Shown here: positions 26,881-31,462 of the stretch, one piece after another
Numbering within the stretch: position 1 is the stretch's first letter
Layout of the letters: the number at the start of each line of letters is the position of its first letter
Sequence record: PZ445550.1
Source of the DNA: a phage
Reading direction: 5' to 3' (one strand)
Length of the DNA: 64,000 nucleotides
Made by a program: the position numbers and the translations under genes
Notes under the pieces: generated by a model
What the model was told of the DNA's origin: nothing
Seen by the model: the letters and a program-made list of their open reading frames with translations, nothing else
The model's database searches: none

Positions 26881-28719
26881 TTATTCTAAGTAGGAAAATC
26901 CTTCTGCATCTTTTTTGACAGTAATCTTATGAGCTAATGGATGCGTATGCCCATGAGAAACAATGATAGAGTTTAGACTTTCTTCTTCGTTTAGCAACTC
27001 AACAAGGGTATCGAGTCCTTTTGTATCAATAAAGCTAATTACTTCGTCAAGGAACAGAAGATTAATATTAACTTTACTAATAGATGTTAACAACATTCTA
27101 ATAGCTAACAGAGTTGCTAGATTGATTCTACTTTGCTGACCAGTAGAGCAGTTCTCCATGCTGGTACGGTTTCCATCATTGAAGATTACTACTTGTAATT
27201 TCGTTTCATCAAGTTCAAATCCAAGTGCGAACTTACCACCAGTCATAATAGAAAGATATTTATTAATTAATTCCTCAAATACTTTCACACTATGCTCTAG
27301 TTTATATCCTACCAAATTTTTCAGTGCAGCAATTAAAACATCAAGATCAGCAACAGCTTCTGATACTTCATTCAATTTGGAAGTAATCTCAGACATTTCT
27401 GCTTCAGCTTTCTCAATTTGTTCTAATCTTGCTTTATACTTTGCATTGGCTAACTCGACATTTGCATTATGCTCTTTAGCAATTGCAACCCTAGAACGTC
27501 CATCTGCTATTTCTTTTTCTAATTGTCGGATTTGCACCAGTAGGTTCTGCACATTGAGTTCTTCAAAAGAAACATCACTCATTGAATTTTTAAACTCATC
27601 TCTAGCCGCTACTGCTCTATCTAAGGAATCCTTAGCCCTATTATATGCAGTATACTCAAGTTGCTCTTTCTTCAACTGCTCGAGTTTAGCTTCAAGAGAT
27701 TGTTTCTCTTTGAACAGAGGATCATATTCTGTTCTAGCCATATCCATTGCTTTTTGAGCAGCAGTTGTATCTAGATGAGTACCACAAGTAGGACATTCAG
27801 TATTTGAAGCCTCTTGTTTAAATTTCTGATAACGTTTCTTGACTTCTCCCGCACGTGAGGTCACAATCGTTAGGTCACGCGTAACACTCGAGATTTCTTC
27901 GTTTTGGTCGGTGGGCGCAAGTAAATTTTTGAAGGGTTCGAAAGATTGTTCGGCAACTTGTACAGCTTTGTCCAAATTACGCAATTTAGTAATATTAGCC
28001 TCTTGTGCTTTGGCTAATGCCGCCTTAATTTTCGATTCAGTAAGCTCTTGTGCTAACGGTTCTTCATCAAACTCTGGAACTTCAACAGGCTCCTGTAAAC
28101 TTCCTAGACTATTTTTATTACTAAGGATTTTCGTAATTACAGCCATTTGGCCTTGCAAGTTATTTAAAGTATTTGCTACTTCTTTACGATCGGCCTTAAT
28201 AGTTTCCGACATTTCTTTGTACTGTTCTTGATTGAACAGATTAACAAGAAAAGCCTTACGCGTTGCATCTGTTGCTTTTAAGAAGTCTAGGTTTGAACCC
28301 ACGGATTGATAAATTAGTTTGGTGAATGTTTGGAAATCACCGCCCATAATCTCTTCAATCATCTTGTATGTTTGGGTTGCCGTGTGCCCACTAATATCTT
28401 CCCCGTTCTTAATAAGAGTGACTTTAGCGGTTGATTTAACTACTTTATGCAGTTCATACTCATCTTCATCCTTAGAAAAGTAAGCATGCATATCGTACTC
28501 TTTCTTAGGAGAAGACCAAGAAAATAAAGCGTCCTTCTTAATACCACGAGAGTTTTTATTATAAAATAACTCTTCAATAACAGTGGCAATAGTAGACTTT
28601 CCTAGTCCATTTCCGCCAATTAATTGAGTAACTGGATTTTTATCGAAATGAATTACGATGTCCTTACCGTAAGACATAACATTACTAAATTTTAGTGTCT
28701 TAATTGTAATCTTTGACAT
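26881..28719 (-). CDS. sbcC: SbcC/Rad50-like ATPase (T5 D13-like)
   Basis: Walker A GGNGLGKST, long central coiled coil with CxxC hook (CPTCG), D-loop LLFLDEVISFID; start at internal ATG 28719. Confidence 0.8.
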   Translation of the reverse strand: MSKITIKTLKFSNVMSYGKDIVIHFDKNPVTQLIGGNGLGKSTIATVIEELFYNKNSRGIKKDALFSWSSPKKEYDMHAYFSKDEDEYELHKVVKSTAKVTLIKNGEDISGHTATQTYKMIEEIMGGDFQTFTKLIYQSVGSNLDFLKATDATRKAFLVNLFNQEQYKEMSETIKADRKEVANTLNNLQGQMAVITKILSNKNSLGSLQEPVEVPEFDEEPLAQELTESKIKAALAKAQEANITKLRNLDKAVQVAEQSFEPFKNLLAPTDQNEEISSVTRDLTIVTSRAGEVKKRYQKFKQEASNTECPTCGTHLDTTAAQKAMDMARTEYDPLFKEKQSLEAKLEQLKKEQLEYTAYNRAKDSLDRAVAARDEFKNSMSDVSFEELNVQNLLVQIRQLEKEIADGRSRVAIAKEHNANVELANAKYKARLEQIEKAEAEMSEITSKLNEVSEAVADLDVLIAALKNLVGYKLEHSVKVFEELINKYLSIMTGGKFALGFELDETKLQVVIFNDGNRTSMENCSTGQQSRINLATLLAIRMLLTSISKVNINLLFLDEVISFIDTKGLDTLVELLNEEESLNSIIVSHGHTHPLAHKITVKKDAEGFSYLE

Positions 28720-29677
28720 ATTTCGCAGCTCTAGCCAAGATTCGATCAATGTCGTCCTGAGATAGCTTCTCGACCTCACGGAAGTAAAGTTCAAGTTCGC
28801 CCAACATATCAAGATCAACAAGATTTAACTTAGCGTCTTTAGTAACTCGATGATTAATCTTCTTATCTAATAAATCAGAGTCTTTGATAGACTTTAATTG
28901 AACAACATCACCAGTAACTTCATAGATTACGCGATCATAATCACTAGGTTCCATTTCTTCACCAACCCCGATTGTTTTACGAATCAGTTGTGGCAAATCA
29001 CCAAGTTCAATCCATTCTACTTTTAACGTATCAGTATCAATGATAAAGCAACCATTTGTACCTTTTGTGCGTTCTCTGTGGAACGATGTAGTTAATGGGG
29101 AGCCTGGGTAAAGAAGTCTAGTAGATCCTATAGTCTGGCTATTAGTATAAGAATGTAAATCGCCAGCAATTACAGTATCATAACAGTTGTACTTAGTTAG
29201 ATCGATTTCTGGTTTTACATGTGGAGGGATTTCACCACGAACATGCGTGAAACATAGTTTTGATTTAGATGGTTTCCATTTAGATTTATGGACTTCATCA
29301 TAGGGAACAATATCAAATTCAGGAGAGCGATAGGGTTTGGTAATTACTTCCCATTTTCCACTAGTTACTTTATTAATAACTCCCGCATAATGATATAGAC
29401 ATGAAATAGTTTTAGTTAACATTTCATGGTTTCCCGTGAAGATTTTACCTGGATGATCAAGTCTTGACATGAACTGTTCTAACAGTTCTATTTCTTCCGA
29501 CGATGGGTCGGCAACATCAAGTATATCACCACCAGCAATATGAAGATCACAGTTATGATTATGGAATATATCATTTAACCGTTCTCCTAGCATCAAGAAG
29601 CGACGCTTCTGCCATTCTTTAGGTATCTTATCTTGGCCCAGCTTAATATGATGATCAGCACTAAATAGTATTTTCAC
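28700..29677 (-). CDS. sbcD: SbcD/Mre11-like nuclease (T5 D12-like)
   Basis: Calcineurin-like phosphoesterase motifs SADHH, GGDILD, GNHE; immediately upstream of the SbcC-like gene. Confidence 0.85.
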   Translation of the reverse strand: MKILFSADHHIKLGQDKIPKEWQKRRFLMLGERLNDIFHNHNCDLHIAGGDILDVADPSSEEIELLEQFMSRLDHPGKIFTGNHEMLTKTISCLYHYAGVINKVTSGKWEVITKPYRSPEFDIVPYDEVHKSKWKPSKSKLCFTHVRGEIPPHVKPEIDLTKYNCYDTVIAGDLHSYTNSQTIGSTRLLYPGSPLTTSFHRERTKGTNGCFIIDTDTLKVEWIELGDLPQLIRKTIGVGEEMEPSDYDRVIYEVTGDVVQLKSIKDSDLLDKKINHRVTKDAKLNLVDLDMLGELELYFREVEKLSQDDIDRILARAAKYVKDYN

Positions 29678-30137
29678 TTAATAGACTATCATATACTGCA
29701 TTTGCTACAGTCTCTGCTTCATGTATGGAATCTGTGTACCCATAATGCTTACCTTTAATTTGAACAAAATATCTACCAGTTGAATGTTTTAAGAAAACAC
29801 CTTTTGGTAATTCTTTATTACTATTCTTGTTTCTATTCAACTGATTGCGTGACTTAGAAGAGTCTAGTAAATTATCTATGGCATTATTTAATGGATTCCT
29901 ATCCTTGTGGTCAATTTCTTCTGGAATATATCCATACACATATAAGAAAGCTAGCTGATGTGCTTTGTACCTTTTACCATCAATTCGGATTTCCAATCTG
30001 ATATAGTTATCAGATACCCATACTTCCGTCCCTGCTATGGAGCCTTTTGATACTCTTCCCCTTGAGACTTTCCATCTAAATATACCAGTTGGAGGGTCAT
30101 AGTCCAATAACTCTTTAAGTCTATCTTGTGTAATCAT
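29661..30137 (-). CDS. HNH homing endonuclease (NUMOD4-like N-terminus plus HNH_3)
   Basis: LDYDPPTGIFRWK and IDHKDRNPLNNAIDNL motifs; inserted between D11-like and sbcD; preceded by a terminator. Confidence 0.75.
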   Translation of the reverse strand: MITQDRLKELLDYDPPTGIFRWKVSRGRVSKGSIAGTEVWVSDNYIRLEIRIDGKRYKAHQLAFLYVYGYIPEEIDHKDRNPLNNAIDNLLDSSKSRNQLNRNKNSNKELPKGVFLKHSTGRYFVQIKGKHYGYTDSIHEAETVANAVYDSLLSENTI

Positions 30138-30140
30138 AAA

Positions 30141-30168
30141 GATATAAGAAAAGGGGCCGAAGCCCCTC
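30141..30168 (-). terminator. Rho-independent terminator after D11-like gene
   Basis: Minus-strand hairpin AGGGGC-TTCG-GCCCCT followed by a T-run. Confidence 0.6.
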
Positions 30169-30174
30169 TATTTA

Positions 30175-30948
30175 TTAATCATCCAGATCGCTTGCAGCTT
30201 CTGGGTCAATACCTTTCTGGGCTCCAGCATTGCTATTACCAGACTTAGCATCATCATCTTTATTCTCACGACCTTCCATGAATGCTTGAATTGCTTCTTT
30301 CTGCTCTTCATAGGTAGGAACCGGATAAGTATTTTCCAGAGAAGGAACTTTTTCGAACTTGATGATGTCACCATCTTCATCACACATAGCTTCACCAATC
30401 AGGTCAGTATCTACAACATACTGCTTAGCTTCAGCACTGTTAGGATCTTGAAGTTTCATCTGGAACTGCATAGCGGCAATCTGCTGTACATCATATTCAG
30501 TATCAAAGCCTTTACCTTTTTTCTCGATAGAAATATCAATATCGAACGGAGTTGCCAGACTCAACTGCTTCATAATAGACTGGATGCCTTTCAGAATAGT
30601 AGCCTTAACTTCCATTACTTTCAGTTTGTTATCAGAACGGTCAATAACAAAAGCGATATAGTTTTTCTTCGGTTTCAGCGGAACACGATTACCGTCTTTA
30701 TCCAGTTCTTTTTCAAAGAAACCCATGTCATGGACCGGATCAGCTTTACCACGAACAAAACTCTCTTTGTCACGGTTAAAACGTAGACACTCGAACGGAG
30801 CTACTCCACCATCTTTATTAGTCAGCCAATAGACATAACGCGGAAGAACACCAGAAACGATACGAACACGAGTGATGCCGTTGTTGAACTTCAGGAATTC
30901 GATTTTATCGTTAGAACCGCCAGTAGTTTCGCCCCAAGACTTAGCCAT
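30175..30948 (-). CDS. D11-like early protein
   Basis: 257-aa ORF in conserved position between sbcD and the D10-like helicase; E. coli-optimal codons. Confidence 0.5.
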   Translation of the reverse strand: MAKSWGETTGGSNDKIEFLKFNNGITRVRIVSGVLPRYVYWLTNKDGGVAPFECLRFNRDKESFVRGKADPVHDMGFFEKELDKDGNRVPLKPKKNYIAFVIDRSDNKLKVMEVKATILKGIQSIMKQLSLATPFDIDISIEKKGKGFDTEYDVQQIAAMQFQMKLQDPNSAEAKQYVVDTDLIGEAMCDEDGDIIKFEKVPSLENTYPVPTYEEQKEAIQAFMEGRENKDDDAKSGNSNAGAQKGIDPEAASDLDD

Positions 30949-31225
30949 ATTTTATTTCCTCTTTAAAGATTAATTTCGATTTATTAATTGCGATTAGTGG
31001 GTTAGTGTCGATTACTAAACGTGGTATCCATACTGGAACATACTGTATGTCCAAACTAGGATCGTTTGTAAACTTGTATTCGGCATAATTTCGTAGACTT
31101 AAAATCCCTAGATATTCTGCCAGTTGTCTATTAGACAATTTATTTGGATTATCAACAATCGTTGATTTATTCAAAATGAATGAGGGGCCGACTAATAATT
31201 GGTGAGCATCAGGCTCTGTAAGCAT
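30941..31225 (-). CDS. Hypothetical protein
   Basis: 94-aa ORF; no obvious Shine-Dalgarno sequence. Confidence 0.3.
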   Translation of the reverse strand: MLTEPDAHQLLVGPSFILNKSTIVDNPNKLSNRQLAEYLGILSLRNYAEYKFTNDPSLDIQYVPVWIPRLVIDTNPLIAINKSKLIFKEEIKYG

Positions 31226-31332
31226 TCTTTTAAAGAGCTTAATAATTAAGTCGGAATTTCCCCTAGCTAGTAAGTATAGCCTTTCATAATCGAAGAATTT
31301 AATTTTTGTTTTCTCCTCGAATTTATGTATAT

Positions 31333-31362
31333 ATTATACTAGATTTCGAGAGAATTTAGCAA
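31333..31362 (-). promoter_or_regulatory. Early promoter (proximal copy of a tandem pair)
   Basis: Minus strand reads TTGCTA, 18-bp spacer, TATAAT, followed by a P_N25-like leader. Confidence 0.5.
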
Positions 31363-31433
31363 CTAAAATTTTTATTTTTCTGCTTCGGACTTTCTTATCA
31401 ATCCGAAACTTTCTCTCTCAAATTTATGTATAT

Positions 31434-31462
31434 ATTATACATCATTTATGGGCTGTTGCCAA
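31434..31462 (-). promoter_or_regulatory. Early promoter (distal copy of a tandem pair)
   Basis: Minus strand reads TTGGCA, 17-bp spacer, TATAAT; the -35 lies in the 3' end of the helicase gene. Confidence 0.5.

Follow-up and report, generated by a model that had tools for sequence, protein, structure and literature searches.

Homing endonucleases that combine an N-terminal HNH domain with a C-terminal AP2 DNA-binding domain have been reported from phages, cyanobacteria and protists (Magnani et al. 2004, as cited in PMC10448857), and interchangeable endonuclease genes at one site have been described in other phages by Barth et al. 2023 (PMC10448857). MobE of phage T4 is a free-standing HNH endonuclease encoded by a promoterless gene; its expression needs transcription from upstream, and a terminator limits its transcript level (PMC2790892). 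MobE nicks the 5′ end of the downstream gene, the carrier genome is protected by polymorphisms, and the flanking sequences are co-converted with the gene (PMC2790892). I-HmuI, an HNH nicking homing endonuclease of the Bacillus phage SPO1 (PDB 1U3E), is intron-encoded. In the T5-like phages, homing endonuclease genes are reported to be the chief difference among genomes (PMC10644984; PMC8594841), and the H-N-H genes named 'heg' or F-Tfl are found at loci such as the tRNA region and the dnaB-primase junction. A search of the literature found no paper on the SSB(D11)-sbcD(D12) junction.

Here, we analysed a window of 64,000 nucleotides (the whole stretch of phage DNA under study; sequence record PZ445550.1), in which an HNH gene lies at this junction. 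Based on sequence comparisons, we consider it highly probable that this ORF is a free-standing HNH-AP2 homing endonuclease gene that colonised the SSB(D11)-sbcD(D12) junction of a T5-like phage. As in the case of T4 MobE, a close experimental precedent, the gene lies between two conserved genes, lacks its own promoter and has a terminator nearby. However, its C-terminal domain is unrelated to that of MobE, the terminator precedes the gene instead of lying inside it, and, unlike mobE, the ORF overlaps the start codon of the downstream gene. It also differs from the intron-encoded I-HmuI gene in being free-standing. The T5 'heg'/F-Tfl genes belong to the same phage group and include paralogues with 42-53% identity, e.g., Bf23 hegE and mar003J3 hegJ_2 ('P-TflX'), but they occupy other loci.

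Organization of the SSB-sbcD locus

Positions 28700-30948 of the window are 100% identical to the corresponding region of Escherichia phage KookSpook (PP925842), a T5-like phage whose closest relatives in our search are classified as Tequintavirus. On the minus strand, the gene order is DNA polymerase, D10-type helicase, a 94-aa ORF, SSB/D11, the endonuclease ORF, sbcD/D12 and sbcC/D13, followed by RusA-like resolvase and exonuclease genes, as labelled in the KookSpook record. The elements of the junction are as follows:

30175..30948, minus strand: SSB/D11, upstream neighbour, 257 aa (PHROG 1607 'single strand DNA binding protein', E=3e-103, and record annotations)
30169..30150, minus strand: intrinsic terminator hairpin of the SSB gene (hairpin scan, fold and locus alignment)
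30138..30149, minus strand: leader between the terminator and the endonuclease ATG (junction alignment)
29661..30137, minus strand: putative free-standing HNH-AP2 homing endonuclease gene of lineage A, 158 aa, ATG start (ORF list, Pfam, PHROG and orthologues)
29661..29677, minus strand: 17-nt overlap of the last codons and stop of the endonuclease with the first codons of sbcD (ORF coordinates and alignments)
28700..29677, minus strand: sbcD/D12, Mre11-like nuclease subunit, downstream neighbour (Pfam Metallophos and PHROG 100)

These coordinates bear out the placement of the ORF between sbcD and a D11-like gene proposed in the earlier note, which was made from the sequence alone; the range 29661-30168 given there corresponds to the ORF plus the hairpin. 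The family of the 'D11-like' neighbour is labelled as single-strand DNA-binding protein by PHROGs and by several records.

The ORF product matches Pfam HNH_3 (PF13392) at residues 57-99 with E=3.4e-13 and 49.4 bits (cut-off of 24.8), which confirms the HNH_3 motif noticed earlier, and it matches PHROG 99 'HNH endonuclease' with E=5.6e-51. Given these matches, the ORF is not due to chance. The identical ORF in PP925842 already carries the label 'HNH endonuclease', and the phB7 orthologue is labelled 'putative homing endonuclease'; the element is thus of a known kind and already annotated, and its identification is correct. No second copy of the gene was found in the window by tblastn at E≤1.

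The terminator hairpin, AGAGGGGCTTCGGCCCCTTT, is followed by a T-rich tail and lies directly 3′ of the SSB/D11 stop codon; the 51 nt around it, folded as RNA, give -16 kcal/mol. The hairpin is identical in 12 of the 12 aligned loci, empty ones included, and carries a terminator annotation in VAH1, HdH2 and Lindwurm. The terminator is therefore part of the conserved backbone and forms the upstream edge of the insert, outside the insert itself. The endonuclease ATG is located 12 nt past the hairpin, so the ORF does lie directly behind it, as had been proposed. The intervening leader corresponds to the one that precedes sbcD in empty alleles but has a sequence specific to carriers and an additional 1 nt; fixed differences from empty alleles occur at 30142, 30145, 30148 and 30149. 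A Shine-Dalgarno-like run is absent from this leader. At the other end, the stop codon TAG (29661-29663) lies beyond the GTG start codon of sbcD (29675-29677), which gives the overlap with the sbcD start region its length of 17 nt. The sbcD start codon is GTG here vs ATG in empty alleles, and the N-terminus MKILFSADHH is conserved among relatives.

Sporadic presence and the empty site

A megablast search with positions 28700-30948 as the query returned 448 phage records that matched the flanks, only 9 of which, representing seven phages, covered the middle part. These carriers of the gene, which we refer to as lineage A, are KookSpook, slur09, phB7, HK6, MET_P1_179_112, JLBYU40 and the divergent VAH1; a tblastn search agreed with this set. 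The other relatives among the matches listed aligned in two pieces spanning 1788 vs 2249 bases, their site being either cleanly empty or taken by another HNH gene. An apparent insert at the junction of SUT_E420 was discarded as an assembly artefact, consisting of a run of N and a duplicated terminator. The gene is thus absent in approximately 98% of close relatives, T5-type phages included. This comparison of the junction among T5-like relatives, which had been suggested along with the earlier reading, reveals the sporadic distribution expected of a free-standing homing endonuclease gene, far from the presence in all relatives that would have argued against it.

The empty junction is conserved, with CTCAT on one side and TGGTTAAAAAG on the other. 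Empty alleles read AATATTCTCAT followed by TGGTTAAAAAGAAAGGGGCCGAAGCCCC, and their sbcD ATG is a few bases from the same hairpin. In VAH1, the insert is exactly 460 nt, i.e., the 477-nt ORF minus the 17 nt common with sbcD, the leader is unchanged, and the endonuclease ATG occupies the position of the sbcD ATG of empty alleles. KookSpook and its group have a divergent leader with 1 nt more, and sbcD now starts with GTG. The inserted DNA is essentially the ORF alone, with its ATG placed exactly on the sbcD ATG of the empty allele, and the ORF continues into sbcD up to an out-of-frame TAG.

Architecture of the predicted protein

Based on family profiles and an AlphaFold2 model (mean pLDDT of 88.7), we divided the protein into three parts:

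29970..30137, minus strand: N-terminal beta-strand region, residues 1-56, I-HmuI-like in the model and presumed to contact DNA (predicted fold)
29841..29969, minus strand: HNH_3 catalytic domain of the beta-beta-alpha-metal type, residues 57-99 (Pfam, family alignment and I-HmuI profile match)
29673..29807, minus strand: predicted AP2/ERF-like DNA-binding domain of three strands and a helix, residues 111-155, shortened with respect to homologues (profile and fold)

From the N- to the C-terminus, the model consists of a beta region, a beta-beta-alpha unit (strands 74-77 and 90-93, helix 95-101), three strands and a long helix; the predicted structure thus contains the beta-beta-alpha-metal fold. 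A search of PDB sequences with the single sequence gave only spurious leucine-rich-repeat matches, and a family profile was required. The profile of 57 homologues matched I-HmuI (1U3E) in the HNH region, VVDHKDGNKDNNLSTNLRWVTQKINVEN, with E=1.3e-8. Residues D76, H77, N89 and N98, which correspond to D74, H75, N87 and N96 of I-HmuI, are all kept, and their columns are at least 90% conserved among the 57 homologues. The arginine that follows the 'NL' of the HNH_3 motif (R89 in I-HmuI) is also present in at least 90% of the 57 homologues, but the protein has a leucine at this position (91), and VAH1 has an isoleucine. The substitution of this near-invariant arginine by leucine might reduce or alter catalysis.

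The earlier note had described the N-terminus as NUMOD4-like. We dropped this label as a sequence-level description, since NUMOD4 (PF07463) gave no Pfam match in the ORF product at E≤1, whereas I-HmuI, used as a positive control and possessing a true NUMOD4 N-terminus, matched at 5.4e-17. The likeness of the N-terminal region to I-HmuI is in the predicted fold only.

The C-terminal third, which was missing from the earlier account, is AP2-like, in contrast to the different DNA-binding region found at the C-terminus of I-HmuI. The 57-homologue profile of this third matched plant AP2/ERF domains (WRI1 with 2.2e-10 and TEM1 with 9.7e-6). Pfam AP2 was not detected in the ORF product itself because the AP2-like module lacks approximately five residues of its hairpin; nevertheless, both Pfam domains, HNH and AP2, were found in 17 of 88 homologues. 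By profile and predicted fold, the protein probably belongs to the HNH-plus-AP2 class of homing endonucleases, from whose described members it differs in the shortened AP2 module that Pfam misses. It also differs from the 'IPA-HNH' subgroup of Barth et al. (PMC10448857) in that its HNH is a canonical HNH_3 match.

Gene history and the linked flank

The phage that carries 'Campylobacter phage C13' as its name (the record is marked UNVERIFIED, and it is in fact a Tequintavirus) has a different endonuclease at the same junction. Outside the cassette, KookSpook and C13 are 97.8-98.4% identical, vs 91-93% identity between the KookSpook backbone and every other locus examined. The KookSpook endonuclease, on the other hand, is 96.5-97.8% identical to the copies residing in those 91-93% backbones. 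The remaining lineage A carriers are interleaved with empty genomes by backbone similarity, with slur09 being closest to Kenya-K16. Judged from the identity matrices and the KookSpook/C13 contrast, the history of the gene is incongruent with that of the backbone. Copies in different phages are 2-3.5% apart, so that very recent transfer is not evident, the KookSpook/C13 contrast excepted.

Two tracts in the flanks could be related to this mobility:

29419..30149, minus strand: divergent tract between KookSpook and C13, interpreted as the footprint of a recent exchange of the endonuclease cassette (mismatch positions and sliding identity)
29618..29645, minus strand: sbcD 5′ haplotype, codons 11-20, a candidate co-conversion or immunity tract (in all KookSpook-type carriers, with fixed differences vs T5-type empty alleles)

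In the comparison of KookSpook with C13, mismatches are concentrated at 29419-29678 and 30140-30149, with few elsewhere, and the right-hand edge of the tract coincides with the terminator. In the 12-locus alignment, the alleles group by endonuclease type over the initial 78 nt of sbcD (29600-29677): the four empty alleles are identical to each other and the carriers are 95-100% identical, vs 84-86% between groups. At the protein level, two amino-acid changes, R2K and V18I (read by hand, not computed), separate the sbcD N-terminus of carriers from that of T5-type empty alleles. Most of the 29618-29645 haplotype was also found in approximately 17 records outside the nine carriers, and the two that were examined, SA001 and Gostya9, are both empty. 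These alleles weaken a strict linkage of the haplotype to the gene, and the tract is not strictly diagnostic. SA001/Gostya9-type empty alleles may represent the background of the first lineage A insertion or may be the result of precise losses. The changes exclusive to carriers are those at sbcD positions 29668, 29673 and 29677 (in KookSpook-type copies), together with the changes in the leader.

Other HNH lineages at the same junction

Two further HNH lineages occupy the junction. Lineage B (176 aa) was found in 29 records at ≥87% identity, including NR01, Shivani and rutana, and, at approximately 59% identity, in Klebsiella T5-like phages; the endonuclease of C13 belongs to this lineage. Lineage C (171 aa) was found in nine records, with PHB06, Stp1 and five other phages as its carriers. 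Identity among lineages A, B and C is 32-35%, and one of the two lineages B and C gives no Pfam AP2 match. In both lineages B and C, the stop codon overlaps the sbcD ATG as ATGA, and subtracting these 4 nt from the length of the ORF again gives that of the insert (531-4 = 527 in lineage B and 516-4 = 512 in lineage C). Based on these counts and a spread sample, approximately one in ten records is occupied by some lineage.

These arrangements invite a broader reading, which we put forward tentatively and regard as rather doubtful: at least three HNH lineages could be competing for the SSB-sbcD junction as a landing site and replacing each other there, each with its own recoded sbcD 5′ end and with its ATG on the sbcD translation start, so that the Mre11-like nuclease would be translated only downstream of a selfish ORF. 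If so, the insert could be hard to lose, and a recombination nuclease, perhaps one needed for homing, would be tied to the element.

Expression and proposed homing mechanism

No promoter-like site was found between the terminator and the ATG, where the 12-nt leader is too short for one. Within the ORF, a single match to a promoter (30106-30079, 9 of 12) was rejected, as it was no better than those in shuffled sequence; in the whole region, the number of promoter-like matches likewise did not exceed that in shuffled sequence. The best promoter-like sites (11/12 and 10/12) are located at 31462-31333, upstream of the 94-aa ORF and SSB. The gene would thus be transcribed from promoters located upstream of the orf94-SSB operon, by read-through of the terminator, which must also be the case for sbcD in empty alleles. 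At the level of translation, the endonuclease ORF would take over the sbcD translation start region, leaving sbcD to be translated by re-initiation or, probably, by coupling to the endonuclease ORF.

In a mixed infection with an empty-site relative, the protein would bind the empty allele through its N-terminal beta region and its AP2-like domain, and the HNH site (D76, H77, N89 and N98) would introduce a nick or a cut, either close to the junction or within the initial ~60 nt of sbcD. With the carrier genome as the template, recombination-dependent repair would then copy the gene along with a short 5′ stretch of sbcD. The carrier would be protected either by the insert, which splits the site, or by the linked substitutions. 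Recognition of the GC-rich terminator stem by the AP2 domain was considered and set aside as a general mechanism, since paralogues with 42-44% identity are flanked by genes that overlap, leaving no intergenic room for a hairpin; one such paralogue, found between dnaB and primase, overlaps its neighbour by 4 nt at either end.

Selection, decay and alternative explanations

An HNH gene at such a position might no longer act as an endonuclease. It could be a crippled or defunct enzyme, kept by linkage or by the dependence of sbcD translation on it and spread passively by ordinary recombination between phages. The near-invariant HNH_3 arginine is Leu or Ile throughout lineage A, the AP2-like domain has been shortened below Pfam detection, and the sbcD start, now GTG, is embedded in the ORF, so that a clean deletion must restore the start context. 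Decayed copies are also known: the JLBYU40 copy has a 1-nt frameshift that cuts the protein to 101 aa, and, for the lineage C copy in TrudiGerster, the match covers only 77% of the length. Additionally, ordinary homologous recombination between phages during co-infection could in principle yield the mosaic seen here even if the nuclease were inactive. Nevertheless, Nei-Gojobori dN/dS values among close copies are 0.03-0.18 over the whole ORF, and the comparison with VAH1 gives a dN of 0.16 with dS saturated, which indicates that the protein is maintained by purifying selection and that a function at the protein level is preserved. The four catalytic residues are intact, and the gene is more alike across divergent backbones than the backbones themselves are. 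We therefore regard a defunct, passively spread gene as unlikely.

The same purifying selection would be compatible with a domesticated function, instead of or besides the selfish one. The protein could act as a phage weapon that targets relatives during co-infection (marker exclusion) or as an AP2-like DNA-binding regulator of sbcCD expression. The location of the gene in an early replication/recombination operon and its presumed coupling to sbcD would suit such a role, and AP2 DNA-binding modules have been co-opted as regulators elsewhere (PMC10448857). However, a gene missing from nearly all close relatives is dispensable for the phage life cycle, and its site is interchangeable with two other HNH lineages, one of which has no recognizable Pfam AP2 domain. 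The exclusion of competitors, moreover, is mechanistically the same as homing and hardly constitutes a separate model. Domestication thus seems very improbable, even more so than loss of endonuclease function.

The reading as a free-standing homing endonuclease gene, already advanced in the earlier note, is supported by the occurrence in 9 of 448 records, the incongruence with the backbone, the partly linked sbcD 5′ polymorphisms, the purifying selection and the one frameshifted copy. Purifying selection together with decayed copies agrees with the usual cycle, in which invasion is followed by maintenance and then by decay.

Implications for the T5-like phages

The value of this analysis is mostly that of a clean confirmation, i.e., a textbook free-standing homing endonuclease in a phage group rich in them. 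The local details hold no surprise, neat as they are: three lineages share one junction, the inserts consist of ORF sequence alone and take over the start of sbcD, and KookSpook and C13 form a near-isogenic pair. They also explain what is likely a mis-annotated sbcD start in the public record. If the junction is indeed contested, KookSpook and C13, with 98% identical backbones that carry lineages A and B, respectively, would be a natural pair for the study of endonuclease competition. The locus would be convenient as a model of how homing endonucleases choose their target sites and compete with each other, and of how carriers are kept immune.

The start of sbcD and its annotation

In the public KookSpook record, sbcD is annotated from an internal ATG at window position 29593, giving a product of 297 aa, whereas the conserved start is a GTG at 29677, from which a 325-aa product is read. 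The 28 residues lost from the annotated protein include the metallophosphatase 'DHH' motif. The gene caller was probably misled by the ATG-to-GTG change at the sbcD start, which is linked to carriage of the KookSpook-type copy of the lineage A endonuclease.

29593-29677, sbcD 5' end, annotated versus conserved start

Upstream of orf94 and SSB, an intergenic region carries two strong sigma-70-like promoter matches on the minus strand:

31225-31446, intergenic region of 220 nt
31462-31434, minus strand, sigma-70-like promoter match, 11/12
31362-31333, minus strand, sigma-70-like promoter match, 10/12

These matches probably drive an orf94-SSB-endonuclease-sbcDC transcription unit.

Endonuclease copies and empty sites in relatives

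Decayed copies were found in JLBYU40 (locus L006, 2634-2939), where a frameshift reduces a lineage A gene to 101 aa, and in TrudiGerster (MZ501108, 31162-31554), where the match to lineage C spans only 77% of its length. In T5_ev219 (locus L018, 401-931), dnaB and primase tightly enclose an HNH paralogue of 42% identity, which overlaps the gene on either side by 4 nt. ORF-only inserts with overlapping start and stop codons are also seen at this second locus of the family.

T5-like sequences are also deposited as 'Campylobacter phage C13' (MG065692, locus L003) and 'Listeria phage LM 4-14-1' (OR848168), host labels that look doubtful. The C13 sequence shares ~98% identity with KookSpook in the backbone; its endonuclease belongs to lineage B. 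In SUT_E420 (OQ990039, locus L014, 687-787), the SSB-sbcD junction contains an N run, with the terminator and the 3' end of SSB duplicated around it; this is an assembly artefact rather than an insert.

Within the first 60 nt of sbcD, the empty-site phages SA001 (L016) and Gostya9 (L017) have the lineage-A-type haplotype at codons 11-20 and the empty type at the first four codons. These phages either retain the background ancestral to lineage A or have undergone precise losses of the gene.
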